This document shows positions 3,361 to 52,030 of a stretch of DNA of 64,000 nt, one piece after another. Position 1 is the first letter of the stretch. Every line of letters begins with the position of its first letter. The notes beneath the pieces were generated by a model. That model was given only the letters and a program-made list of their open reading frames with translations, was not told the DNA's origin and did no database searches. The translations under genes were made by a program, and so were the position numbers. The DNA comes from Fistulifera solaris (Eukaryota), in contig AP026126.1 in the NCBI GenBank assembly GCA_030295235.1, forward strand, positions 1,302,001 to 1,366,000, in the 5' to 3' direction.

Positions 3361-5061
3361 CATGAGAAGTGAGATGAGAAGGAGATGAGACGTGACTGAG
3401 ATGAGTGAGATGAGAAGTGAGATGAGAAGTGAGATGAGAAGTGAGATGTAGAGAAGTGAGAAGTGAGAAGTGAGATGAGAAGTGAGAAGTGAGATGTGAG
3501 AAGTGAGATGAGATGTGAGAAGTGAGATGAGAAGTGAGATGTGAGAAGTGAGAAGTGAGATGTGAGAAGTGAGAAGTGAGATGTGAGAAGTGAGAGAAGT
3601 GAGATGTGAGAAGTGAGATGAGAAGTGAGATGAGAAGTGAGAAGGAGATGAGATGAGAAGGAGAAGGAGAAGGAAGGAGATGTGAGATGAGAAGGAGATG
3701 AGATGAGATGAGATGAGATGTGAGAAGGAGAAGGAGATGTGAGAAGTGAGATGAGATGAGAGAGGAGAGATGTGAAGTGGAGATGTGAGAAGGAGATGAG
3801 AGAGTGAGAAGGAGAAGAGATGAGAAGAAGGAGAAGAGAAGGAGAAGAGAAGTGAGATGAGAAGAGATGAGAAGGAGAAGGAGATGGAGATGAGAAGGAG
3901 ATGAGATGAGATGAGATGTGAGAAGGAGATGAGAGTGAGAGGAGAAGGAGAAGGAGATGAGAAGGAGAAGGAGATGAGAAGGAGAAGGAGAGGAGAAGTG
4001 AGATGAGAAGGAGAAGGAGATGAGATGAGAAGGAGAAGGAGATGAGAAGGAGAAGGAGAAGGAGATGAGATGAGAAAAGAGATGGAGATGAAGGAGATGA
4101 GAAGAGATGAGAAAGGAGATGAGATGGAGGAAGGAGAAGAGAAGGAGAAGGAGATGGAGATGAGAAGGAGAAAGGATGGATGGAGAGTGAGAAGGATGGA
4201 GAAGGAGATGAGAGAGAGATGAGAGAGTGAGAAGGAGAAGATGAGAAGGGAGAAGAAGGATGAGAAGGAGAAGGATGAGAAGGAGATGGAGAATGAGATG
4301 AGGATGAGAAGGAGTGAGAGAGAAGAGAATGTGAGAAGAGATGAGAAGGAGATGGAGAAGGAGAGAATGATGAGAGAGATGATGGAAGAGAGATGAGAGA
4401 TGAGAAGGAGATGAGAAGTGAGGAGATGAGAATGAGATGAGAAGAAGGAGATGAGATGAGATGAGAGAGATGAGAAGAAGAGATGAGATGAGAGAGAGTG
4501 AGATGGAGATGAGAATGAGATGAGATGAGATGAGAAGGATGAGATGAGAAGAGAGATGAGACAGATGAGATGAGAAGGAGAAGTGAGAAGAAGGAAGGAG
4601 AAGAAGATGGAGAAGGAGAGTGAGAAGGAGAAGATGAGAAGTGAGAGGAGAAAGATGAGAAGGAGAGATGAGAAGTGAGAAGGAGATGAGATGAGAAGGA
4701 GATGAAGTGAGATGTGAGAAGTGAGAAGGAGAGGAGAAGGAGATGAGAAGGAGAAGTGAGATGTGAGAAGTGAGATGAGAAGTGAGATGAGAAGTGAGAA
4801 GTGAGATGAGAAGTGAGATGAGATGTGAGAAGTGAAGTGAGAGGAGATGAGAAGGAGAAGGATGAGAAGGTAATGAGAAGTGAGAAGTGAGATGTGAAGT
4901 GAAGTGAGAAGTGAGATGTGAGAAGTGAGAAGTGAGATGTGAGAAGTGAAGTGAGATGTGAGATGAGATGAGAAGTGTTAAGTGAGAAGAGAGAAGTGAG
5001 AAGTGAGATGTGAGAAGTGAGAAGTGAGATGTGTGAAGTGTAATGTGATGTGAGAAGTGAG
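3361..5061. repeat. GA-rich, almost C-free low-complexity satellite (GAGAAGTGAGAT / GAGAAG / GAGAT units)
   Basis: About 1.7 kb. The outer zones are dominated by GAGAAGTGAGAT(GT) and the centre by GAGAAGGAGAT-type units. Confidence 0.95.
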
Positions 5062-5425
5062 ATTGCACACTTCCGACTATTGCACACTTCCGACTATTGC
5101 ACACTTCCGACTATTGCACACTTCCGACTATTGCACACTTCACACTCCGCTGCACACTTCCGACTATTGCACACTTCCGACTATTGCACACTTCCGACTA
5201 TTGCACACTTCCGACTATTGCACACTTCCGACTATTGCACACTTCCGACTATTGCACACTTCCGACTATTGCACACTTCCGACTATTGCACACTTCCGAC
5301 TATTGCACACTTCGACTATTGCACACTTCCGACTATTGCACACTTCCGACTATTGCACACTTCCGACTATTGCACACTTCCGACTATTGACAGACTATTG
5401 CACACTTCCGACTATTGCACACTTC
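5062..5425. repeat. Second block of the 17-bp repeat (about 20 copies)
   Basis: Same unit and orientation as 2544-3358, with a few truncated units. Confidence 0.95.
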
Positions 5426-5590
5426 ATGTTGCAATAGTTGGACATGTTGCAATAGTCGGACATGTTGTTGCAATAGTCGGACATGTTGCAATAGTCGGAC
5501 ATGTTGCCATCTCACTTCTTACTTCTCACATCTCACTTCTTACTTCTCTCATCTCACTTCTCACTTCTCACAGCTCACATGTCACTTCTC
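5426..5590. repeat. Second block of the 18-bp repeat (4-5 copies) followed by a short CT-rich inverse copy of the GA satellite
   Basis: CATGTTGCAATAGTCGGA units to about 5510, then ATCTCACTTCT units (reverse complement of AGAAGTGAGAT) to about 5590. Confidence 0.88.
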
Positions 5591-6352
5591 AATATCCTTC
5601 GATAGCAGATGTACTTTGGTCTGCAAGAATGTGCAAGATCGAGTCTTACATTGAGTCATGGGCCTCACATTTTCTCACCAAAATCCAAGATTGGCCTATT
5701 GTGCAATTGTGTCTGCAAACTCAGGTGAGGTCAGGCTTGTACTGCAGGAAACTTTGGTGGAAGCAGAAGAAGGTGCATAGATTTTTCAAACATTTGGATG
5801 GAGATGGAGATATTAGTGCAAGTGAACAAGAAGAAAAGGATGGGTCTGATAGTGATGATGACTCACGATCAACCTCAAGTAGAAGAAGCAACAGAGAAAT
5901 TGAGGAAGTGGACAGTGGTAGTCACATTAATGAAGTAGATAATGTTGGTTAATAGAGAAGTGGCTAGATGGGTCTATGGAGAATGGAGACAGACGACAGA
6001 CTCTCTTCGGAGGGTCTGGCATCGCCCGTTGGAGCCAATAGTTGACACACACAACGGACAACGGACTGTCGATCAGCCGTGGAGTTTTTTAGCGTTCTCA
6101 ATGTGTCAGAACGGTATTCGGTGTACGATGTGGCAATTTATGACGTCTGCGAAGAGCGGACGCACAACAACAGCACAACGACAACAACCCAAATAAATTT
6201 CGTCCATCATCGATCATCGATCAAGGATGATGAAATCATTATTATTTCTTGGCCGTCATTTGTATCGTCGCCAATAATCTGTTTACGTCGTACCCATTCA
6301 ACGTTATACCGAAGTAGAGAAAGATCATTGTTTTCTATCTCCTTTAACAGCA

Positions 6353-7498
6353 ATGAGGCTCCAGCTGATAGTGTGTGCGGCCCTAGCTGCTTTCTTTCCT
6401 GTTGATGCACTACTCTCGACGCATCCGCAAACACTGTCGACCAAACAAACGTTTCATACTCGCCAATCTCCTCCTCTTTTTCGGCGGCGGCGGCGGCGGT
6501 AGGATCGGATGAAGTTGATGTTTCACCATCAGTCAAGGAAAGCAAATGGGACCGCGTCCGAAGGGAAGGAGGCATGTTTTCGATCCACACGAAATACGGT
6601 GGTTTGAATCCGTTCGGACTTTGGTATGGTGTGGTGGCTGTCACTCTCGGTATACCGTGGTATATTGCCATGACAATCTGTCAAATTTTTACAAGTTGAC
6701 TGGAGAGCGCTTCGATCGACTGCGACGCATTCCGATTTTTATTACACAAATCTGGGGGACACTGTTGTTGCGATTGACACATTGTTATCCCAAAATGGAA
6801 GGTTTGGATATTTTACGAAAATTCTACAAAGAGTACGTACTTGTATGTTGGTAAGAACCGTGCTGGATTGGCGCAGGCGTCTCATGGTGTCTTTCTCTTA
6901 GGGGTCGTTGTGCCATGTTTGTGGCGAATCACAGCTCATGGATGGACATTCCCTATCTGGGTGCGACCATCGGCTGGAGAAATTACAAACTCATTAGCAA
7001 AAGGAACTACAGCGTGTCCCTATTCTCGGTAAGGCCATCAAGGTCGGCGGTAATATTCTAGTAGATCGTCAAGATCGTAAGTCGCAGCTCATGACCTTGA
7101 AGAAGGGAATTCAATACTTACAAGACGGTGTGCATTTGTGCACGTATCCAGAAGGAACACGTACGCGTACGGGAAGACTCATGCCCTTTAAAAACGGTGC
7201 TTTCAAAATGGCGCACAAGGCGGGTGCACCGGTCATCCCCATATCGATTGTAGGTGCCGACAAATCCATGCCCATTCATTGGATGTTCCCTTTCCGACCC
7301 GGTCACCCCGTATCACGCGTGGTCGTCCATGAACCGATTGAGTCTAAGGGAAAGACGGAAGAGGAGCTGGCGGAGGCTGTTCGTAGTGCTCTGATTAGCG
7401 GATTGGACGATTACCAAAACCACTCGACAAGTGAGACACATCAACTGTCATTTAAGGAGTCTATGAGCAACAAATATAATTTCGTAGAATCCGCTTAG
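6353..7498 (+). CDS. 1-acyl-sn-glycerol-3-phosphate acyltransferase (LPAAT/PlsC family), probably plastid-targeted
   Basis: N-terminus [20 protein letters not shown] resembles a signal peptide. Intron at about 6832-6901. Acyltransferase motifs [10 protein letters not shown] and [20 protein letters not shown]. Frameshifted in several places, so the 3' end is uncertain. Confidence 0.9.
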
Positions 7499-7599
7499 TC
7501 CTTAATTTAACAGCAGTAGGTATTTATATGAGTATTATTCAAAGAATTTCATTGCTGTTCATGACAATCCACCATTTACAATGTTTGTGACCGAAACGA

Positions 7600-9304
7600 T
7601 TACGGTGTATGCCACTGAACCAAAAAGAACACATAAAAGACAAAACCGATCAACGCACTTCCGGAATAGGGCATTTTAGCTAGCTCTTCGAGCTCTTTTC
7701 GTCCATGAGGAAGTAACCCGACAAACAAAATGGGTGAAATTTGAATCAGCGTTGTGACAATTGTGAGATTAAACATGCCATTCAGGCCGCCTTCTTCCAG
7801 ACGTTCTTTGCTAACGTCATAAATTCCGAGAAGTGAAGAAGAGAGAGCGGGAGCTATCATTTGCGCGACATTGAACACAGTCCTAAAGCAAGGAATCGCC
7901 GGAATCCGTGTGAGCGAAAGTATCAAAGGTTGAAATCGAAAAACGAAAGCATTACAAATACGCACGTAAACATAGCATAACTGGCTCCCTCGGAACCCGT
8001 AGGGCAGAGACTGACCATGACGATCATCGTTGGAAGAAATTGAATTCCCACAATGAATTCGGCAAAAGCATCGTCACCCAGAGCGAACCAATAGGGAGGA
8101 ATGCCAAATGTTTTGTGACGGATCAGTAAAAGTTGCAAACTGCTCAATATGCAGTTGATACCAATCGAGACTTGATACAGGCGTCGCCAACTCAAGTGCA
8201 AGAAAAAGCATTTGTACGTCAGCGTTCCAATGTATAAGAATATGTACGACACAACCAGAAGAATGTTAAGTTGTGAGGCACCAAACGACAATCTCGTCGA
8301 AAGAAACTGACGCCACGCCGCGTTGGAGACCTGGAGTAGATTGAATATGTAAATGAATGCCATCGGCTGCCAAACGGATCTTCGGCAGACAGTTCTCCAG
8401 ATTTCCTTGCATTGTTTCTGGAAGCGAGGCTGGACAGAAGTGTCTTCGTCCATCCGAGCGATCAATGGAAGCAATAAGAGAGGGACCACCATAAGAATCT
8501 TCAAAATAGACGCAGGACCGTATGTACTGTACATATAGGTGGAAGCAGTCGCCGCGATCATGAGTCCAAAGAAGCGGATCACATAGCACGTGGATTGCAA
8601 TTGCCCGCGTCGCTCTTCCGATTCTATTTTTACCTTTTGTACAACGACCGAGTCGACCATGACATCGGCGCACCACAATCCGGCGCCGTAAAGAACAAAA
8701 GTAACACCCAAAAAGTGAGTGGCGGTTTGTCCTTTTCCGTAGGAGACTGACTTTGGTGATGGTCATCCGTTAGTTGATAGTCATGAAGAAGCCGAGCAAC
8801 TATGTATGAGCAAAGCAACCAGCCAAGCACCATGTAAGGTTTCCTTCGACAACCTGCAATCGGAACATTATCACTCCAAAATCCAAAAATGATTTTGCAA
8901 GCTGCCGGCAGCGTCGCGATCTGAGCCAAAGTCGTCTGCTGAGCTTCGGTGGCACCCAAATCGAGGGGCCATACGTTCATTAAAGGCCGTAACATTCCCT
9001 GTAGTATCCCCACCACCAAGTAACTTGCAGGAATTGCAATATTCTCGTAGCGGAACAATTGTAGAGCTCTAGGAGTATTTGTTGGGAACCAGTAATTTCG
9101 CCAGTAAGACAGGAAAATATGGACGAAACCCTTTGACATGGGTGACATCTCACCCTCCTCATAACAATCGAAATCCGCTCCATGAGTATGCGGATCTTCC
9201 TCTAATTCGCTGCTATATGTTGAAGAGCGTTGAGATTCCTGTCTTTCATTTACCAAATGAAGAGGCTGTAACTCCCTCGTTCTTGTTTCAATGTCAATTG
9301 TCAT
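7600..9304 (-). CDS. Folate-biopterin transporter (BT1/FBT family, MFS)
   Basis: KIIFGFWSDNVPIAGCRRKPY, ADVMVDSVVV, LCPTGSEGASYAMF and multiple TM helices. Intron at about 7966-7883. Split across ORFs 8630-9304, 7923-8711 and 7600-7965. Confidence 0.88.
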
Positions 9305-12800: not shown

Positions 12801-15428
12801 TCTGCCCTTTGCGAGTCTCTTTATTCAACGCTTTCCCGTCTTGTTCGTCCAGTTTGGAACAAGCCAGTCGTTGTGGTAACGGAGGGGCCTTTCATTAAAC
12901 GCCAATGGTCAAAAATAGCTTTGCAAGCTCCGGCTAAAGTCGAAATACTACTTAATGAAACAACACTTGAAGAGATCAGTCGTCCTCTCCGAAATCTTCA
13001 GTGTGAAGTGCGATCCAGGTTGTTTCGGGCTGTGGCCTCTATTCCTGGAAGCGCTCAGCCGAATTCAATGGAAATCGATGCGATGGACGGGTGGTCAGAT
13101 GATAGTCAATACTTAACAAGGGCATTACAATACCACAACCAGTCCCGCACAATTCAAAATGGAACGGTAACGAGCCTTTCAGTCGAAGAAGCTGAGAGTA
13201 TTGCACGGCTAATCGAAGAGAAGAATATCCATTCGTTGTACCGATTACTTTCTCGCGTCGTTCAGCTTTTAAATCTTCTTTTTTTGCTTCGTCGTGCTCA
13301 GATATCGACTGAACTTCATGAAGTCGATTGGGGTATGCTGCATGGATTTACTTTCTGGCAACTTGTGGGCACGTTGGAAGGCCAAGATCGTTTGGAATCT
13401 ATGCTCAATGCACTTGTAACTTACTCCGCATCGGACGATTCAGGGACAAAGAGCTTAACTGCTCAAGCTGATGATTTGGTTGATAAGCTAGGAGATCAGT
13501 GCTATCTCTTCTTTCACCTGGATCGCGACTTGCATACTCTGGGCTCAGAAAGGCAGCTCAAGCTCTCAACTGCCACCCCGAGTCCGCGCTTCGTCGCGAG
13601 CTAAAGCAAGCTGCAAAGTTTAAATTTAAGCAGGCTGCTCAACATTGGCGAAGTGCAACTCTTGTCACAGGTCATGCCATTCATACGAAAGAGAAAGAGA
13701 GCTACAAAGTAATTGCCCAGCGTGCTATACAATACGGCAGTCCTCTTGCTATGGCCGTTGCCAAACTTATCCAATTGGAAGATGTCGACACAGCCGTCGA
13801 TGTGTGTCTTAGTGTGGCTTCGAATTTCCGTAGAATTGGTGGAGGCAGAGAGACGACTGGTTTTGAACTTCAATCGATTGCGAGCCAACCGACTGACAAA
13901 CTTAGTTGGGAACACTATCTTTACCATAAGCGACCTGATCAAGTCGAGACCGGTGTGAGCCAAAGTACAAGTTCTAAAGGATCTCGTCATTCCGCTGCTT
14001 ATGGAACAGATGTCAGCTCTGAAGATGTTGTGGCGACGTGCTATGCCTTGATCTTTTACCACCTTTCATTTCTTTTGAAATCCCCTCATCAGTTGCTGGC
14101 TCGGTCAATGCTTGAGGTGTGTTCCTCGTCTACAGATAGCAAATTTTTGGAGGCCTTCTACTCATACATGTTGGAAAGTGGCAATGAAGATATTTTGCTA
14201 AGAATTGTCAGCACGGATCTGGAAGAGTGGCTAAGAAAGAAGGAGGATCAGGATTTGCTTTGGCGTTACCTCAGTATCCAAGGACGACAACTAGAGGCGG
14301 GTCAAGAATTATTCTTGAGAGGATGCGCCAAAGACTTGAAACTTCCCTTGAGTACCCGAATCGAGTATCTATCGAAAGCTTTAAGTGCGTTACGCATAGC
14401 GATGAAGGACGCCCATGGAATGGGCGAGATAGGTCACAAGGTAGACGAAGTCGACGAATCTCTTCAAGTCGCACGCATCCAAAGTCAAATCTTGCAGGCC
14501 ATCGAGTCGTCTACGAGTGATTGGCGTTCCGAGATATCTGAGGAGAAGATTGATGCGCTGAAATTCAGCCTTGTAAATGTGTCAGATCTTTACAATGACT
14601 ATGCGGTAGCGTTGGAGCTCTACGAATGCTGTTTACAGATCCGACATATTTGCCGACACGATGACCCCGACGCTACTCGCTTTTTGTGGAAGCACATTAT
14701 CTGTAAGGAATTTCTCCCGTGTGCCACACGTAGTGACGAAATCTGTCAGTTCCTTAAGGGCTGGGTGGCGGAAATCGGACGAGATGCTGAGGTTGTCCCT
14801 ATCTCAATCGTGAATAACGGATCCGGGTCCAACTTTTGTGTGTTTGAAAACGGTGATTGGATCAAGCAAGTCGAAGACAAAGTAGTTGACCTAGGACAAC
14901 AGCTGTACGGGAAAGGAAGAGACTATGTCGCTCCGCCGAAATTGCTCTTGTCGTATTTGGATGGTAGGTAATGTTCATCTTCCATCTTTCGCTTTTCCAA
15001 AAAAGCTGGCACTCACTCTCTCTCTGAATCTCTCTGAAACAGAACTGTGCGGTGCGTTACCCGATATTCTTCGTCCGGAATGGCCCCTGATTATTCTGGC
15101 TCGAATTGGAGTTCCTTATCTTAGTATCTTGGACACCTTTGAAACGTTGAACCGTTATGAAATTCACGGTTTTGTAAGGGAGCAGGATGACGAGAGATGG
15201 AAAAGAGAAATGCACGCTATCATTGAGCTTTTGCGACATTGGGTTGCTTCCGCGCGTTCAGCAGCGAAAGACAGCAAAGCTTGGCAAGAACTTTTCCGTT
15301 CCCTGACATCTGGGAAGCTCATGCCTAAAATTGACGACCTACGGATCCAACTTGAAACCCATTCCAATACAGCCGCCTTGCAAGAAAGTATCCGTGTTAT
15401 TGCGCACGAAATCCAAAGTATAGCGTAG
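9839..15428 (+). CDS. NUP155: Nucleoporin Nup155/Nup170 family
   Basis: Beta-propeller motifs AWMSVDHKLYLW, VVSVGLVQPK and TQSGRIFLGGDDGCVYEMSY, followed by a long helical region (DLLWRYL, LSTRIEYLSKA, VSDLYNDYA). Introns at about 10282-10358 and 14965-15041. Several frameshifts; the start is uncertain. Confidence 0.88.
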
Positions 15429-15835: not shown

Positions 15836-18800
15836 ATGAAGCTTGAAGAACACCGTGTTAATAGTCAAAGCACTGGAACCGACAACCTCATTCTTGAATG
15901 CGGAACTAGTCTCGCCGAGCGCGAACATCGTGCGGAGAGCGAAAGCGCAAAAACCGACCGTAGTTCTTTTGAGTCCATTGCGGCACTCCGCGCTCATGTT
16001 GCAAATGATGTCGTAACTTCCCAGCAGCGGTACACGACCTTTGCTTCTCCGTTCGAACTGGTTCGTGACTCAGCAACATCGGGGAGCCACAGGTTCTTGG
16101 ATGTCCCTCTCGTGTACGCCGATCAAACCGCTTCCAATCGTCCTCTTGAAAGCATCGAGAACTACATCCAACAAACTTGTTTACCACTTTATGGAAACAC
16201 ACATACAAACACAAGCATCACTGGAAGTCAAAGTACTGCTTTTGTCGCAGAAGCTCGCCAAATTGTGGCCGAAGAAACGAATGCCAAGGTGACAGGGAAA
16301 GCGAGTCTAGATGTAGTTCTTTTCGCGTAAGTGGCAGTCGATTCTCGTCGTCCGTTCCGATCCGTGATTCTCATACAATTGAATTTATACAGGGGGGAAT
16401 GGAGCAACTGCAAGTGTCGAATTGTTAATTGACTGTTTGGGTGTTCGACATGCTTGTCAGGAACGGTCCACGCGTCCCGTCGTTTTTATCGGCCCCTACG
16501 AACATCATTCGAATCTTGTTCCGTGGCGTGAGACTGGATGCGAAATTATCATGGTTCCTGAATGTTCGAATGCTACTGATATCGACTTTGATGCTCTCGA
16601 CCGTCTACTCGCTAGGCCGGAATACAATGGACGCTTGAAAATGGGAACCTTTTCCGCGGCGTCCAACATTACCGGGAAGATCAGCGATGTTGACCGCATT
16701 GCCGCCACGCTGCACAAATACGGGGCATTAGCGTTCTTTGACTATGCTACGGGTGCTTCCTATATGAAGATGGACATGAATCCACCGCCATCGGAAAAAT
16801 ACCCATTCCCTGCTTCTACTGCCAAAGACGCGATTTTTATCAGTCCACACAAAATGATAGGAGGAGTCGGTACTCCAGGTGTTCTGATCATTAAGAAGCA
16901 TCTTGTCAACCAGAGTAATGCACCGCATAGGTCAGGAGGTGGAACTGTCTTTTATGTCACTAGCGAGCATCACCGCTTTCTTGGCAACAGAATTGAGCGT
17001 TATGAAGGCGGTACTCCAAACGTATCTGGAATCATTCGGACGGGACTTACTTTTTGACGAAAAGAAAGATTGAGAAGGAATACGAACGTTTGGTTTCTCA
17101 AAATGTCAATTTGCCCCTTACAGTTGAAGACTTCGACTGTGCCGAATACGAACGCATTTCGACGTTTTTAGCCCAGAATGCGCCGAATCTTGTGTTGTTG
17201 GGAAAAGGCACCGGTTCGCGACATCTCCCTATCTTCTCGTTTCTTATTCGTTTCCAAGGTAGATTTCTGCACTTCAACTATGTCTGTGCAATATTGAATG
17301 ACGTCTTTGGAATCCAGACCAGAGGTGGTTGCATGTGTTCGGGACCATTTGCACAGAGTTTGCTTGGTTTGACTTACAAGAATGCAAACGGAGTCGATGC
17401 TCCCAACGAATTCAACAAAGAGATTGAGGATGCATTGATAAAGCATAAAGAACGTGCCGAACTTCTTCGTCCCGGTTTTACAAGACTGAGCCTTCCGTTT
17501 AAAGGATTGCTTGACTTTGAAGTTGAATACATCTTGAATGCTTTGGTTTGGGTGGCTAAACACGGTTGGGCGTTGATGTGCCAATATCGGTGCAACCACC
17601 GCACTGGAGAGGTACGATTTTCTCATCTTTGCGTTGTGACTCATCGTTTCTATTTACTCACACACACATGACTTGTAGTGGCGTCACTCTAATCGTCAGG
17701 GGAAACCACTTGGACGGGAAGAGAGAAAATGGCTGAGTCATTTTGACTTAAAAAGCGACAAACAAGTTCGTTTAATGAAAGATAACACGGACGAGTATGC
17801 CACTTTGTTAAAACATACGTTGGCAAATGCCAATACATTGCTTGATGTTGCAGTGACAGATCAGCGGAGCATATCACAGGCATTGAAAATGATGGATTCC
17901 GAAATTATTAAGGGGGAGGATGATAACATGAACCTAGAGAGTCTGCGATGGTACGCTTATCCTAAGGAATGCGCAATGCTTCTATCATCTCGCAAATATG
18001 ATGAAGCCGTCCAACTGGAAATGCCTTTGCTGGGTGCCATGAAGCCAAATTGCGTGAAAAATCGGAGGCTGTCGCCGAAGCGAGGTAATGAGGCTAGTTT
18101 TGATTCTGCGAACGAATCGACCTCCAGTTCTGATGTAAGCGCTAAGAAGCAGAAAGTAGAAAAAAATCCAGATCCTTTTGCTACGGAAATAAACAATGCG
18201 AACGTCAAAGAGAAGAAAACCCCAAGAGATTGTTCCACGTGGGGCAAAGGAGAAATGGTACCTGTCCTCGCAAACTCAAAAGAACAGACATCTACTTCTG
18301 CGTCTATGTGTCTTGGTAAAGAGCCAATAGTTGGGAACAAAAGTTTCAGCACATCAAACCTCCTGCCAAGATGATGCGGCTGATTAATCAAGCGATCGTC
18401 CAATGGGACATGATAAATGAAGGAGACAAACTTCTTCTCGGTTTATCGGGAGGAAAGGATTCGCTCAGTCTCTTACACGCATTACTTGAAGTCAGGAGAA
18501 AGCACCCGGTGAAGTTTGAACTTGAAGTTTGCACTATTGATCCAATGACTCCCTCTTTCGATCCATCATCGCTCATTCCCTATGTTGAATCTCTGGGACT
18601 GAAGTACCATTACATTCGCGACGACATCGTCTCTAGGGCTAGCTCGTCGGGAAAGGACGGCAAGATGGTGTGTATTCTTTCATGTTCACTGCTTAACTCT
18701 TCTACAATTGCTTTGCTTATGTTCTTTATTTAGGTGTCTTCGCTATGCGCATACTGCGCAAGGATGAAAAGGGGCAACCTTTACTCCTGTGCTCGGAAGA

Positions 18801-19447
18801 ACAACTGCAACAAGCTAGTCTTAGCCCAGCACCTCGATGATTGTGCTGAGTCATTTATGATGAGTGTAATGCACAATGGTTTTCTGCGGACGATGAAAGC
18901 AAATTACAAAATTAATTCTGGGGATCTTTCGGTTATACGTCCTATGGTATACTGTCGTGAGAGTTTAATGACAGAATTTGCGAAATCCGTTAGTCTCCCT
19001 GTCATTAACGAAAACTGTCCAGCTTGCTTCGAAGAACCAAAAGAGCGGGCGCGCATCAAGAAGTTGCTGAGCCGAGAGGAGAATCTTTATCCTAATTTTT
19101 ATGACAACATACGGCGGTCCCTCCTTCCCTTGATGCATGATGATGCGACGTCTATACTGCGGTGTTATACTGATGAAGTTGTTTCGAAAAGTCGGAAAAA
19201 TGCTAAGGTTGCTACCCGCGCCGTAGACGATGAAGATATAAAAATTTCAACTGACTCTTTGACGAAGGTATCAGAAGAAGAGCTCGTCAAAGAGCTGGCA
19301 AGGAGGAAAGCTGATCGTTTCCGGCTTTCTGGTTCAATGAAACGAGTTGACGACAGCGACATGTCGGGAATTCCTGATCCAACTGGTCAGATGTGTTCGT
19401 TAAATGGAGGGAACGGCACCATTCCATGCACAGAGCTCATGGAGTAA
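15836..19447 (+). CDS. Fusion of a class V PLP aminotransferase (cysteine desulfurase-like) and a TtcA-like PP-loop tRNA thiolase
   Basis: N-terminal half: YADQTAS, YGNTHT, EHHSN, FSAASNITG, FDYA, SPHK (PLP Lys), EGGTPN, RGGCMC. C-terminal half: SGGKDS, CAYCARMKRG, QHLDD, IRP, NCPAC. Introns at about 16328-16392, 17612-17678 and 18668-18733. The linker reads into KFQHIKPPAKMMR, in frame with the TtcA part. Confidence 0.87.
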
Positions 19448-19465: not shown

Positions 19466-22400
19466 CTAGTCAAAGCTATCAACTTCACCTCGTCTTGCAA
19501 GAGACTCAACCTCTTCATCTAAATGTTCCGTTTCCCGAGCGGCTTCGAGTAGTTTTTGAGTCCGAGAGCGCGATTCCATCAGTTTTTCCCGCTGCCTTCG
19601 CGCCCATTCGTCGGCATCTCTACTCATTAACGCTATCCTTTCTTCGGGGAGTAGTTCTTTCATATCCCGGCTTAGTTGAAGTAGCTTGTTTGTCATGTCT
19701 CCAAGGACGTTAGCCCCAGCAAAGTTGCCCCGTACGCTATCACCGAGAGATCCGACGATGTTGTCGACAACCTGTACGAACGGGCGAACGTCCAGTGAAG
19801 GCATCACATCTATCAATTGCTTGAGAAGTAGTCTCCTCTCAACAGCGGTTTCCATCCGTAAAACATACCCTATGTGATCAATGTACCTATTTATACCTCG
19901 GGCCAATTCAGCATAAACACCTTGCTGTACAATTTTTAGCACATGCAACCACTGATTGTGCTCGGGATCATCGAGAAGTCCAGCGCGAGCAAGTTTTGCT
20001 TCCTCTTCGGCAACTGCGTATTTCAAATACGCGACAAATGCATCATCAAACAACGGTCTCATTTCTCTCACACCGTCAGTCAAAGCTTGTGCTGTCTCTT
20101 CTTCCGTGTTGTGTTTGGGGTCCATAGCTATCTTGCATATCGATCTAATGACTTCCAATTGTTGAGCCTCTAACTGAGCACCAAGAGCCCGCGCCTCTTT
20201 TAGAAGCAGCTGAGCAGCAACAACTAATCCTCCAAGAAGCTGACGCTCCCGCGAACTAGTTGTTTCGATGGAATCGTCGCCTCGGCGCATAGCTTCCAGG
20301 TCACGATCAGCCATCAGGGCGAGTCTCTCTTTCACAAGTGTCACAAAATTGTCAGAGAGCAACAAATCTTTGTAGTTGGAAGTAATTTCATTATGCCTCT
20401 CCTCTGGTTGATCCCATAACTCATCTAAAAGCATCTGTAGCTGCGAAGATTCTTTCATCTTTAACAAAGGATTGTCAATGAGTCCGATATCCACTGCTTC
20501 AGCCATAAGCGTTCGCATATTTTGCACTTGCTTGTCAGTTAACTGTCGATTCCCAACAAAATAAGTCGTCAGGCTGGTCCCGTCAAGCAATTCCTCTTTG
20601 ACTTCTTTCATTTTCTGGAGTACTTCCGATGCGAATTGCGCTTGTCTTAAAGCTTCGTCTAATTCTTTTGGCAGCCGTATCGTGCCTGTTCCTGGTGAGG
20701 CCCCAGGCCAGTTCACTGCGGTCTCCGGATCCACATTCGGATTGTAGACTTCTGGGCCGGAGAAAATGTCAAAGAGCGGTGCCTTCAAAGGTCCATCCAA
20801 TTCTTCATCGGGAGACTTGTTGATACGAATCTCAAGTTCCGCCAACTCGTCATCTAATATACGGGCGTGACTAGATATGGAGTTTTCGAGTGCAATGAGA
20901 TTATCCACCTCGTTCTTATTTTCCATATTTTCTTCTTCGCTGAAAGCCCCTGATGTTTCAATTTTACTAAGACGACCGTCTGCAATGTTTTCTCCCGCCT
21001 CAAACATGCGCCGAAGCTCTTCTTCAATTGTCATCGTCTTAATATTTATTGTTTCAGCAGTTCTCGTCCTCACCTCTACGGCAGCTTTATCGGCCACATC
21101 GGACATGAGACGATCTTCGCGCCTCTGCCGTTGTTCCCGAAGTAAATCTTTTGCCTTCTCAAAAGCCCCACTAACGAATCCAGCGCCTAATGTACTTTCA
21201 TTGTCCTGCTCGTCGCCAAATTTCATGACCTGATTCAACAATTCCTCAGGTGTGAGTTCTTCGCCTTGTTCTGACATCTCCAACAACGCGTCCTGAGCTG
21301 CTTTGATCATTTCCTTTTGCTGCGGATCTGTAATGTCATTTGGGTCATTCACCAGGTCCTGATCGGAAAAAACAGCATCACCACCCGCATCCTGGCGAAT
21401 ATTCAGGTTGAGGTTTCGTGCCATCGGTTCATTTAGTGAACTCTCTTCGATTGCTGACGACTTTGCCTGATCCTTTAAATAGTCGGCCGGCCTTGAAATC
21501 GTTTGCATGAATGCTCGCGGCTTTCCAGTTGCAGAGCGATCTAAACTTGCAGGTCTGTAAGACAACACATCCATCCCTATTGGCGAAGCCTTGTCGCCAT
21601 CAAGTCTTTCTGGTTCGTTGTCCTCCTCCTCCGGTATTCGAATGAGCCCAGATTCATACGTATCCTCGGGTAAGCTGGTACTTCTGGCGCTCTTTTCCCG
21701 CATTTTCTCAGCAGCTCTTTTGGCTGCATCCACTGCGTGATTCCCACTACCAGTTCGTTTGGCATTACGCTCAGCGGCCAACTTGGCTTGCTGTACAGCG
21801 AAATCGAGTCCAGGCGGATTCGCTCTACTGTTTGTTGATGACGAAGAGGATGCCGTACTTTTCTTCACTTCTAAAGTCCGTTGAACGGTAGCTTGTTGCC
21901 GTTTCGAAACGATTTCAGCGTCTGTAAAGCCTGGTTTGGGAGTCGATTGTTGTTGTGATTTGTCATCATCATTGCCCAGTATTTCCGCTAGAATCGATTG
22001 CCGACCTTCCAAGTACGAGTTCGACTTTGTTGATCCAAATGATATTTTTCCCGACATGTATTTTTCTAACCCTCGATCCAGAGCTTTCAAAATCTGTTTC
22101 TCTGAATCCTCAAAGAGGTTCCGTAAGAGCGGAGGCAGCGACTTTCCCGTTTGTGGTCGCTTCCCTACAACGACCATGGCCAAGTTGGTAGTCGTTGATT
22201 GATCTTCCGGAAAGACAGCGACCACTTGAACTTCTAAACATGTCTGATCTGATGAAGGCGAAAGGGACGAGTCCCACTGAACAACACTTTTGAGTCCTCG
22301 ATCGTCTTCGCCTCGTATACCATGGGAAGCCGAGGAGGAAGTTGAAAATGATCTTGTAGGTATTCGACCAGCGTACTCAAAAAAAAGATGTGAATTGATG

Positions 22401-22621
22401 TTTGATGGAGATCTAACGATCTTTTGATACATCACAGACAAGTCTTCCGTTTTGTACGTTCCATCCGAGGCTTGGTATTGGAGGGCGGATGATCTATCAG
22501 GATGAAACGAAGGAAGAGTCACAGAACGCAACATTACTCTCCTTCCCGTTAACAAGGAAATAAAGCCACAGCTCGGAGTTATAAGCAGAAGTGTAGTAAA
22601 TATGAATTTAGATGATATCAT
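19466..22621 (-). CDS. Hypothetical protein of about 1050 aa, acidic and helical, probable plastid presequence
   Basis: Long ORF. Likely start MISSKFIFTTLLLITPSCG-FISL (signal peptide plus F). No family recognised. Confidence 0.8.
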   Translation of the reverse strand: MISSKFIFTTLLLITPSCGFISLLTGRRVMLRSVTLPSFHPDRSSALQYQASDGTYKTEDLSVMYQKIVRSPSNINSHLFFEYAGRIPTRSFSTSSSASHGIRGEDDRGLKSVVQWDSSLSPSSDQTCLEVQVVAVFPEDQSTTTNLAMVVVGKRPQTGKSLPPLLRNLFEDSEKQILKALDRGLEKYMSGKISFGSTKSNSYLEGRQSILAEILGNDDDKSQQQSTPKPGFTDAEIVSKRQQATVQRTLEVKKSTASSSSSTNSRANPPGLDFAVQQAKLAAERNAKRTGSGNHAVDAAKRAAEKMREKSARSTSLPEDTYESGLIRIPEEEDNEPERLDGDKASPIGMDVLSYRPASLDRSATGKPRAFMQTISRPADYLKDQAKSSAIEESSLNEPMARNLNLNIRQDAGGDAVFSDQDLVNDPNDITDPQQKEMIKAAQDALLEMSEQGEELTPEELLNQVMKFGDEQDNESTLGAGFVSGAFEKAKDLLREQRQRREDRLMSDVADKAAVEVRTRTAETINIKTMTIEEELRRMFEAGENIADGRLSKIETSGAFSEEENMENKNEVDNLIALENSISSHARILDDELAELEIRINKSPDEELDGPLKAPLFDIFSGPEVYNPNVDPETAVNWPGASPGTGTIRLPKELDEALRQAQFASEVLQKMKEVKEELLDGTSLTTYFVGNRQLTDKQVQNMRTLMAEAVDIGLIDNPLLKMKESSQLQMLLDELWDQPEERHNEITSNYKDLLLSDNFVTLVKERLALMADRDLEAMRRGDDSIETTSSRERQLLGGLVVAAQLLLKEARALGAQLEAQQLEVIRSICKIAMDPKHNTEEETAQALTDGVREMRPLFDDAFVAYLKYAVAEEEAKLARAGLLDDPEHNQWLHVLKIVQQGVYAELARGINRYIDHIGYVLRMETAVERRLLLKQLIDVMPSLDVRPFVQVVDNIVGSLGDSVRGNFAGANVLGDMTNKLLQLSRDMKELLPEERIALMSRDADEWARRQREKLMESRSRTQKLLEAARETEHLDEEVESLARRGEVDSFD

Positions 22622-23220
22622 GATGTAAACTTCGAATTTGTTAGAAGGCATCGAATGGTTTTGGCAATGATGTTTTGGAATTTCGACAAAGAAGAACGAA
22701 AACAAAAATGCAACCTTGTCGCACGCGAAGGTTCGATGGTGGGGCGTTGTGACGGTTGATGACAAGACGGATAGTGCTACGACATCCTACGACATCCTGT
22801 GCATAATCTATCTCATTTTCGCCTAGACTAATAAAACAAATGATTCATGCCTTCAACAGCAGTGATGAAAAGATTTAGTAGTGCTTTATCTATTATTTCA
22901 GCTTGCGATGGTTCAAACACAGGCGGAAGCTGGTGAGCATGGACTCAAACTCGGCTTGAGAAACGAATTCATGACTGAAATGCAGTCGTGGTCAAGTACA
23001 GAGTACAGTTTGGGTTATAGTAGTGGGTCTTGTTAAGGATTTTTCGTTTAATTGATACGAGGGGAGCTTTGATTTTTTCTCGTTTTGTACGTGTTCGGTG
23101 TTCGGTGATGTAACAGTTCGAAACGTCAATGGGCGCAAACAGTGTAGCTGATGGCACGGATGCCTTCAAAAATAGCACTACAAGAGAGAACAAAGGGAGA
23201 CAACCAATTATTTTCTGACC

Positions 23221-51957: not shown

Positions 51958-52030
51958 TTTCCCATAGTGTAGTGGTTTAGCACCCCACACTTTGAATGTG
52001 GTAACCTGAGTTCGACTCTCAGTGGGAGAA
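51958..52030 (+). tRNA. trnQ-UUG: tRNA-Gln (anticodon TTG)
   Basis: Manual cloverleaf: acceptor TTTCCCA/TGGGAGA, D stem GTGT/GCAC, anticodon stem CCACA/TGTGG with loop CTTTGAA, T stem CTGAG/CTCAG with loop TTCGACT. TTTT follows immediately downstream. Confidence 0.9.

Follow-up and report, generated by a model that had tools for sequence, protein, structure and literature searches.

The modified nucleoside 2-thiocytidine (s2C) was, to our knowledge, for decades regarded as a modification of bacteria and archaea only. The bacterial enzyme TtcA of Escherichia coli and Salmonella is a free-standing protein of 311 amino acids (aa) that is served in trans by IscS/IscU. Bouvier et al. 2014 (PMC4081106) showed that three of its cysteines, numbered 122, 125 and 222, are essential and proposed them as ligands of a 4Fe-4S cluster. 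A eukaryotic counterpart appears in an unreviewed preprint of September 2026 (bioRxiv 10.64898/2026.09.27.754811), the available portion of which reports that tRNA-Lys(UUU) of Aplysia carries s2C at position 32 (s2C32) and that the only TtcA homologue in the Aplysia californica genome is a 1177-aa fusion of a CsdA and a TtcA-like part, named 'IscS-TtcA' (LOC101861551). According to the same portion, the fusion is present in 28 molluscs and is said to occur also in birds and insects; the fused protein is proposed there as the s2C synthase, without a knock-out or enzyme assay, and its cleavage is raised as a possibility. In our full-text literature searches, this preprint was the only paper found describing the fusion, and no knock-out or enzyme assay was found for any member of the family. 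Here we analyzed a gene of this kind in the diatom Fistulifera solaris, which lies at 15836-19447 on the forward strand of a 64,000-nucleotide (nt) stretch of DNA (NCBI GenBank assembly GCA_030295235.1, contig AP026126.1, positions 1,302,001 to 1,366,000; hereafter the window, whose own numbering is used throughout).

The locus is one expressed, spliced nuclear diatom gene encoding a protein of ~1137 aa with two modules. Judged by sequence, the N-terminal 60% of the protein is a cysteine desulfurase of the SufS/CsdA type (type II), dependent on pyridoxal phosphate (PLP), and the PP-loop module behind it is classified as TtcA-type, not as Ncs6, TtuA or TilS. The gene is fused where bacterial TtcA is free-standing, with the thiolase placed behind a desulfurase of its own. 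The eukaryotic fusion family to which it belongs is ancient and widespread, and it has already been annotated and, recently, published. As far as the available portion of the preprint describes the Aplysia 'IscS-TtcA' family, the diatom protein has the same domain order, the invariant C-x-C loop, SGGKDS and the CxxC and CPAC pairs, as well as a similar size (~1000-1400 aa) and a linker that is several hundred residues long and poorly conserved. The diatom branch differs in lineage-specific motifs, the sequence LECGTSLAE and a C-x-L-x-G-x-x-G-x-I-P-C tail. A second difference concerns the assignment of the PLP domain, which is called IscS-like, with the catalytic cysteine left unnamed, in that portion of the preprint, whereas we find it SufS-like, with a cysteine that aligns to C364 of SufS.

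The coding region runs on the forward strand from the ATG at 15836, 21 nt downstream of an in-frame TAA, to the stop codon at 19445-19447, and comprises four exons and three introns. In the window, the coding sequence is broken into six frame pieces; three of the breaks are GT..AG introns, and the other three are one-base shifts in homopolymers. Public contigs of the same organism from four runs (X1-X4), all belonging to one study, were aligned to the locus and resolve all six breaks; the figures given below apply among the contig pieces listed, beyond which 55 more exist. The features of the gene are as follows.

15836..16326, + strand: exon 1, encoding a hydrophilic N-terminus, the diatom-conserved LECGTSLAE (LECG at 15893-15904) and the start of the PLP domain
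16327..16392, + strand: intron 1, 66 nt, GTAAGT..ACAG, with a single contig from each of X2, X3 and X4 showing the joint
16392..16397, + strand: G6 run with one G more in the window than in the public contigs, breaking the frame (X1, 13.4 of 13.4 depth)
16393..17611, + strand: exon 2, encoding the central part of the SufS-like class V PLP domain (translation, Pfam, NCBIfam, hhalign)
16500-16514, + strand: EHHSN motif in exon 2
16653-16667, + strand: SAASN motif in exon 2
16737-16748, + strand: FDYA motif in exon 2
16842-16853, + strand: SPHK motif in exon 2, with the PLP lysine
17051..17055, + strand: T5 run in which the window is one T short, breaking the frame in the PLP domain (GLTF|LTKRK; indel depths)
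17321-17338, + strand: RGGCMC in exon 2, the persulfide loop
17465-17485, + strand: LRPGFTR in exon 2, with the substrate arginine
17576-17611, + strand: MCQYRCNHRTGE at the end of exon 2
17612..17678, + strand: intron 2, 67 nt, GTACGA..GTAG, with joints in X2 and X4
17679..18667, + strand: exon 3, encoding the conserved extension of the PLP domain, the poorly conserved linker and the start of the TtcA domain (translation, alignment)
17679-17687, + strand: WRH motif in exon 3
17943-17969, + strand: LRWYAYPKE in exon 3
18222-18245, + strand: PRDCSTWG in exon 3, in the linker
18339..18342, + strand: A4 run in which the window is one A short, shifting the linker frame (indel depths)
18446-18463, + strand: SGGKDS in exon 3, the PP-loop
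18668..18733, + strand: intron 3, 66 nt, GTGTGT..TTAG, within the TtcA domain, its joint being present in X2, X3 and X4 (the last with two such contigs)
18734..19447, + strand: exon 4, encoding the remainder of the TtcA domain, an acidic/basic tail and the stop (translation, alignment)
18746-18757, + strand: CAYC motif in exon 4
19016-19027, + strand: CPAC motif in exon 4
19394-19429, + strand: diatom-conserved C-terminal CSLNGGNGTIPC in exon 4

An earlier note, made from the letters of the window alone, had placed the gene at 15836..19447 and named the motifs SPHK, RGGCMC, SGGKDS, CAYC and CPAC; we recovered all five motifs and the same ends. Its description of a PLP domain joined through a linker to a PP-loop domain stands after homopolymer correction, which gives the four exons a total of 3414 nt (1137 codons and a stop codon), but not as one open frame in the window as given. 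On the separate frame pieces, Pfam detected Aminotran_5 at 16395-17054 (E=3.7e-23) and ATP_bind_3 at 18734-19444 (E=3.1e-8) and 18320-18667 (E=6e-4), matches well outside what chance would produce. The linker frame after the A4 shift ends in a TGA at 18372-18374 that overlaps the ATG of the PP-loop frame. We considered two adjacent genes with an ATGA overlap at 18371-18374 and rejected them as an artefact, because the A missing at 18339-18342 produces a false look of two abutting genes.

The public contigs document both splicing and the length of the homopolymers. Introns 1 and 3 are spliced out in X2, X3 and X4, and intron 2 in X2 and X4, so that these three runs contain processed transcripts; the X1 contigs represent the unspliced form. 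The removal of three spliceosomal introns in transcripts also led us to reject bacterial contamination. In X2, X3 and X4, the joint of intron 1 was read as a skip of 67 nt with GT..GG borders, because the window has one surplus G at the acceptor. One G fewer at 16392 is found in an X1 contig at 13.4 of 13.4 depth and, by the 67-nt skip, in three spliced contigs. An extra T behind 17050 is present in X1 (51.2 of 51.2 depth) and X2 (8.87 of 8.87), and an extra A behind 18338 in X1 (18.5 of 18.5) and in two contigs of X2 (30.2 of 30.2). The frame-restoring lengths therefore occur at full depth in every run for which a depth is reported at these sites. Overlapping pieces tile the gene from ~16112 to beyond 19598, and transcripts of other diatoms marked complete in MMETSP (P0018, P0060 and P0069) encode the same fusion; the proposal of the earlier note that this is one gene with one open reading frame (ORF) is thereby supported.

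One-base homopolymer differences are typical consensus errors of long-read assemblies, and the three frame shifts look like errors of this kind in the window sequence. Other split or overlapping ORFs in the same 64-kb window may likewise be homopolymer artefacts. The six window pieces are colinear, end to end and without overlap, with 18 full-length diatom fusion proteins, and the junctions read as in the homologues (VVLF-A-GNGAT, GLTF-LTKRK, NHRTGE-WRH, KPPAKMMR and GKDGKM-VSSLC); at the T5 site, the homologues read GLTFLFKR or GLAFLLKR.

We also observed a second copy of the gene, ~5-10% divergent, in all four runs; in X1, 11 of the 36 aligned records are 90-95% alike. In its linker, this copy lacks 3 nt at 17909, which keeps the frame, and its intron 2 has gained TGG behind 17671. 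Two origins come into question, a divergent allele in a heterozygous diploid and a close paralogue of recent date.

The PLP module spans ~600 aa and is followed by a conserved extension of ~130 aa (WRH..RxWL, LRWF/YxxPxE). For the diatom orthologue P0073, the top NCBIfam model was TIGR01979 SufS with 107.8 bits, followed by the SufS and CsdA equivalogs, and IscS reached 24 bits. A sequence search of the Protein Data Bank (PDB) returned type II cysteine desulfurases as best matches (5b7s, 3e-20). When a profile of 41 fusion proteins was compared with E. coli SufS using hhalign, the two aligned with a probability of 99.8% and E=1.7e-28 over 378 columns, covering SufS residues 20-401. This alignment pairs HHS with H123/H124, SAASN with N175, FDYA with D200, SPHK with K226 and LRPGFTR with R379, and it sets the R-G-G-C-x-C-A/S-G-P of the family against the R-T-G-H-H-C364-A-M-P of E. 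coli SufS. Since the second cysteine of RGGCMC aligns with C364, it would be expected to be the persulfide carrier.

Structure prediction points in the same direction. We modelled the 1159-aa diatom orthologue P0109, in place of the window's own protein, with AlphaFold on the alignment of 41 sequences, which gave a mean predicted local distance difference test (pLDDT) score of 77.5 and a predicted template modelling score (pTM) of 0.68. Among the PDB matches listed by Foldseek for this model, all were desulfurases of the SufS/CsdB/Nfs2 type, with E-values down to 4.5e-22 and target-normalised TM scores of 0.75-0.84. The SufS fold of the orthologue model, together with the aligned active-site residues and the counterpart of SufS C364, bears out the view that the PLP domain resembles a competent cysteine desulfurase. 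Compared with SufS/CsdA enzymes (SufS of E. coli and Bacillus subtilis, Nfs2 of Arabidopsis), the fusion has the fold and all aligned active-site residues in common, but the identity in structural alignments is ~20%, the persulfide loop is C-x-C instead of the H-H-C of SufS, and the fusion adds a long helical insert (~396-464 of P0109) and the ~130-aa conserved C-terminal extension. The PLP module is a distant branch of the SufS family. NCBIfam also reported a SclA match on the fusion protein (E=6e-13), and SufS/CsdA enzymes also use selenocysteine as a substrate.

For the C-terminal module, we compared the scores of several PP-loop families. On P0073, the NF007972 TtcA model gave 195.6 bits, where its rivals TilS_N, TtuA and NcsA reached 53.5, 30.4 and 28.9 bits; the two window pieces scored 79.6 and 108.2 bits with the TtcA model. 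Every one of the 41 fusion proteins matched the NCBIfam TtcA model, for which the lowest E-value was 2e-69, compared with 7e-22 for TilS_N, 6e-19 for TtuA and 1e-10 for NcsA. In each of the three per-protein tables examined, TtcA led all other PP-loop families with a margin above 130 bits. In this hidden Markov model (HMM) check, TtcA thus outscores NcsA, TtuA and TilS, and an Ncs6/Ctu1-type thiolase was rejected on the same scores. A BLASTP comparison of P0109 with E. coli TtcA showed 32% identity over 222 residues (E=2e-36). In the alignment to the E. coli protein, SGGKDS coincides with the SGGKDS of E. coli, CAYC corresponds to C122/C125, and CPAC corresponds to C210/C213. From the order of the cysteines, we infer that positions 219/222 in the numbering of the published work equal 210/213 of the RefSeq sequence.

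The three cluster cysteines and the PP-loop are therefore common to bacterial TtcA and the fusion, and terminal zinc fingers are absent from both. In the window pieces and the orthologue alignment, no CxxC pair precedes SGGKDS, and the only C-terminal cysteines are those of a single C-x10-C tail; the earlier remark that zinc fingers of the Ncs6/TtuA kind are missing is thus upheld by the alignments. Ncs6/Ctu1, NcsA and TtuA, the thiolases that form 2-thiouridine at position 34 (s2U34) or 2-thioribothymidine at position 54 (s2T54), belong to the same PP-loop superfamily and share the iron-sulfur (Fe-S) dependent chemistry, and a weak PDB match (6scy, 2.6e-8) is of the Ncs6/NcsA/TtuA kind. They differ in that their models score far lower on the fusion, which does not have their N- and C-terminal CxxC zinc-finger pairs.

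Between the two modules lies a linker of ~100-200 aa that is poorly conserved and predicted to be disordered. The P0109 model shows a confident PLP domain, a partly helical extension to ~730, a disordered linker at 734-810 and a confident TtcA domain. The low-complexity half of the window's linker piece was misplaced onto the TtcA domain by MAFFT, and that alignment was discarded. We also noted an acidic linker motif, F-R-D-G-E-H-x-G-E-A...G-F-x-D-G-E-L-S-x-x-C, that is conserved in many diatom orthologues (alignment columns ~1180-1240); it is doubled in P0065 and P0054 and absent from the shorter linker of the window and from P0109, P0012 and P0018. At the other end of the protein, the N-terminus is hydrophilic and acidic and in register with the starts of other diatom orthologues, an assessment made by sequence with no predictor run. 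A targeting peptide is thus not evident, which agrees with the earlier note, and the protein would presumably reside in the cytosol.

To place the gene among its relatives, we searched with its last exon and found many proteins of 1000-1450 aa with both PF00266 and PF01171. Fused diatom proteins came from Thalassiosira, Skeletonema, Pseudo-nitzschia, Nitzschia, Ditylum and Mayamaea. When the last exon was scanned against 1.84 billion cluster representatives, 237 proteins were recovered at E<=1e-30, many of them 1000-1400 aa long with the match at the C-terminus. The shorter matches of 416-900 aa with a PP-loop domain only come mostly from metagenome calls on short contigs and are probably fragments of intron-containing genes; we did not accept them as true stand-alone proteins. 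A search with the representative P0192 listed 120 proteins, all of which had both PF00266 and PF01171; they come from Monosiga, sponges, Trichoplax, cnidarians, echinoderms, hemichordates and amphioxus, and further from tunicates, molluscs, annelids, arthropods and tardigrades. Several of them are already named 'tRNA-cytidine(32) 2-sulfurtransferase' or 'TtcA'; database orthologues also go under 'uncharacterized protein'. The window's TtcA piece matches the Octopus orthologue P0221 with 164 bits and 54% identity. Among the ESM-Atlas feature look-alikes of P0073, which are fused clusters, the commonest phyla are Nematoda, Arthropoda and Oomycota; these feature look-alikes, as distinct from alignments, suggest that the fusion also occurs in nematodes, arthropods and oomycetes.

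The fusion as such is accordingly not new: it occurs in 18 or more diatom proteins, in choanoflagellates and across the majority of animal phyla, and it is already annotated and treated in the 2026 preprint. Conservation within the family is concentrated at the active sites. Across 41 fusion proteins, which are 33-58% identical to P0109, the R-G-C-C-G-P residues of the persulfide loop, SGGKDS and the cysteine pairs of CxxC and CPxC are invariant, and conservation of the PLP H-K pair reaches 90% or more. It follows that selection acts on both active sites throughout the family.

We next compared the TtcA module with bacterial sequences. We scanned prokaryotic genomes, one for each species, for the patterns [ED]NCPACFxxP and LSGGKD and retained 80 loci from 587 confirmed stretches. 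In all but one of these (79/80; L003-L081), TtcA is encoded as a free-standing gene that shares 44-55% identity and the ENCPACF motif with the diatom domain. They belong mostly to sulfur-oxidising Gammaproteobacteria such as Thiothrix, Acidithiobacillus, Thiocapsa and Sedimenticola; E. coli TtcA is only 32% identical. In five of five genomes checked, the TtcA of the sulfur oxidisers is the only strong TtcA match and scores 197-223 bits, below the NF007972 curated cut-off of 272, which was exceeded in only 2 of 14 control genomes.

The evolutionary position of the module was examined with a FastTree phylogeny of 72 rows rooted on TilS, comprising 42 eukaryotic domains, 27 of the 79 bacterial loci (every third), E. 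coli TtcA and two TilS sequences; the tree is without bootstrap, contains one very long branch (L079) and has no Ncs6 or TtuA rows. The 42 eukaryotic domains, including that of the window, form one clade (support 96), and the window falls within the diatoms (support 100). The eukaryotic clade adjoins gammaproteobacterial TtcA, and both together stand apart from E. coli TtcA (support 95). The module thus groups with bacterial TtcA in a tree that has no Ncs6 or TtuA rows, and the HMM scores agree in separating it from Ncs6/Ctu1, the grouping that would have contradicted the earlier note. For the eukaryotic TtcA modules sampled, the tree would fit a fusion that arose once, next to the gammaproteobacterial form. 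Because the bacterial rows were picked by motif and thinned, the sister relation carries no claim about a donor.

The remaining locus of the pattern scan, L002, contains a complete fusion at 5001-8626 (query residues 18-1074) on a contig filed under an uncultured Verrucomicrobiota metagenome-assembled genome (MAG). It is 64% identical to the diatom TtcA domain and is split over several frames, with a longest ORF of 265 aa; the contig is most likely eukaryotic and was assigned to the bacterial MAG by a binning error. Other prokaryotic fusions, namely Aminotran_5+ThiI, MnmA+Aminotran_5 and Aminotran_5+PAPS_reduct, likewise combine a desulfurase and a sulfur-inserting PP-loop enzyme in one chain but have other partner domains; as ESM-Atlas feature matches at 0.82-0.86, they are leads only.

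Taken together, these features make it probable, in our judgement, that the fusion is a self-contained cytosolic s2C32 synthase. The interpretation given in the earlier note agrees with the outcome of each computational check made here. The PLP module would take sulfur from free L-cysteine, which is converted to alanine, and hold it as a persulfide on the second cysteine of RGGCxC. The disordered linker would tether this desulfurase to the TtcA-type PP-loop ATP pyrophosphatase, whose [4Fe-4S] cluster would be bound by three cysteines, the CAYC pair and the second cysteine of CPAC. In some cytosolic tRNAs, the TtcA module would adenylate cytidine 32 at C2, and the activated oxygen would be replaced by sulfide at the free iron of the cluster, handed over directly from the desulfurase, to give s2C32. 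In this way, the fusion would give a cytosolic enzyme its own sulfur source. The tRNA substrate and the position within it are proposed by analogy, through the Aplysia orthologue with which s2C at position 32 has been linked.

Several observations weigh against the fusion being such a synthase. Type II desulfurases normally require a dedicated acceptor (SufE, SufU or CsdE), and no acceptor domain is present among the Pfam and NCBIfam matches within the fusion protein. Both modules score well below the curated cut-offs of their families, with 96.5-107.8 bits for TIGR01979 SufS in fusion orthologues (cut-off 475) and 188-196 bits for NF007972 in full-length fusion orthologues (cut-off 272). Genomic linkage of the two functions is absent from the bacterial relatives, where a PLP-domain homologue occurs within the ~5-kb flanks of 0 of 79 TtcA loci. 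In the P0109 model, pLDDT falls below 50 at 734-810 (the linker) and 1122-1159 (the C-terminal tail), and the placement of these parts is not confident. On the side of expression, no single listed contig covers the entire gene, the four runs come from one study, and that they are RNA was guessed. A report of a diatom thionucleoside was not found in the literature, where s2C together with diatom matched figure labels only, and the sole report of s2C in a eukaryote is an unreviewed preprint whose available portion offers co-occurrence rather than genetics (10.64898/2026.09.27.754811).

The sub-threshold scores in particular leave room for a working desulfurase-thiolase with another target, such as another tRNA position or base (s2U or 4-thiouridine, s4U), another RNA or a small molecule. 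The long branches between the eukaryotic clade and E. coli TtcA fit this idea as well as the TtcA scores under the equivalog cut-off do, and the conserved extension of ~130 aa could alter substrate choice. We nevertheless consider it unlikely, because all TtcA-specific cluster and PP-loop residues are invariant and the related bacterial form, which is likewise below the cut-off, is the sole strong TtcA match in each of the five genomes; the latter therefore looks like an ordinary orthologue and not a neofunctionalised paralogue. According to the available portion of the preprint, moreover, s2C in Aplysia lies at position 32 and the fusion is the only TtcA homologue there. The pseudogene explanation, that the three frame shifts are real in the sequenced strain, is very improbable. 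It can point to three frame-breaking one-base differences within 3.4 kb of coding sequence in the window, but all three lie in homopolymers, the contigs carry the frame-restoring length at full depth wherever depth is reported, no exon contains any other stop, and every catalytic residue is intact.

The linker raises a different question, namely whether the halves work apart, after linker cleavage or by separate translation, or whether the PLP module is not the sulfur donor at all and serves in cluster building or repair or as a selenocysteine lyase. Such an arrangement would suit a linker that is long, poorly conserved and predicted to be disordered, the preprint itself mentions possible cleavage in its available portion, and the activity of SufS/CsdA on selenocysteine together with the SclA match (E=6e-13) would be in keeping with a lyase. 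In contrast, the order of the fusion and both active sites are kept in 41 of 41 sampled eukaryotic proteins, and both Pfam domains are found in 120 of 120 listed choanoflagellate, animal and unnamed relatives. That order and active sites are kept throughout argues for selection on the linkage, and the divergent second copy stays in frame at the sole linker indel reported. We therefore regard separate action of the halves, or a PLP module that does not donate sulfur, as quite unlikely, and the tethered s2C32 synthase as the probable reading of the gene.

Within this reading, the extra cysteines of the diatom proteins deserve separate mention. LECGTSLAE is found near the N-terminus of 11 of 18 diatom proteins, the other seven being N-terminally truncated models. 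The C-terminal C-x-L-x-G-x-x-G-x-I-P-C tail, with the diatom form CSLNGGNGxIPCRELME, is present in 17 of the 18 diatom proteins and in 3 of 41 members of the broad set, and a looser C-x(2-12)-C tail occurs in 13 of the 41 diverse eukaryotic members; the latter could be an ancestral feature lost in animals. It is conceivable, if rather doubtful, that the diatom enzymes are fully autonomous sulfur relays in which the extra cysteines (the first cysteine of C-x-C, that of LECG and, above all, those of the C-x10-C tail) act as a swinging persulfide carrier. If this were true, a built-in carrier would replace acceptors of the SufE/TusA type, and cytosolic tRNA thiolation would be independent of mitochondrial NFS1/ISC export.

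The neighbourhood of the gene was also inspected. Upstream, at 13499-15428 on the + strand, lies a gene with the C-terminal domain of a Nup155/Nup170-type nucleoporin (PF03177, 9.7e-41), which is present in two overlapping frames, 13499-14971 and 14925-15428. Downstream, a convergent ORF of 1099 aa at 19466-22765 on the - strand has no Pfam match; only 18 nt separate its stop from that of the fusion gene, and the 3' ends of both transcripts must therefore overlap or abut. Further away, at 51958-52030 on the + strand, the window carries a tRNA-Gln(UUG) gene with the anticodon loop C32-U-U-U-G-A-A38. By analogy with tRNA-Lys(UUU) of Aplysia, a tRNA that combines C32/A38 with a wobble base of the s2U34 type would count among the candidate substrates; C32 is common, and this serves as a pointer only.

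Beyond the preprint, our analysis adds that the PLP module is, on its sequence relationships, of the SufS type and not of the IscS type, that its catalytic cysteine can be named and that the TtcA module is compatible with a single origin. Diatoms carry the fusion gene and some species are transformable, so they offer a practical system for a first genetic test. In diatoms, the formation of s2C32, the direct feeding of the TtcA cluster by the desulfurase and the role of the modification in decoding would all be open to such tests.

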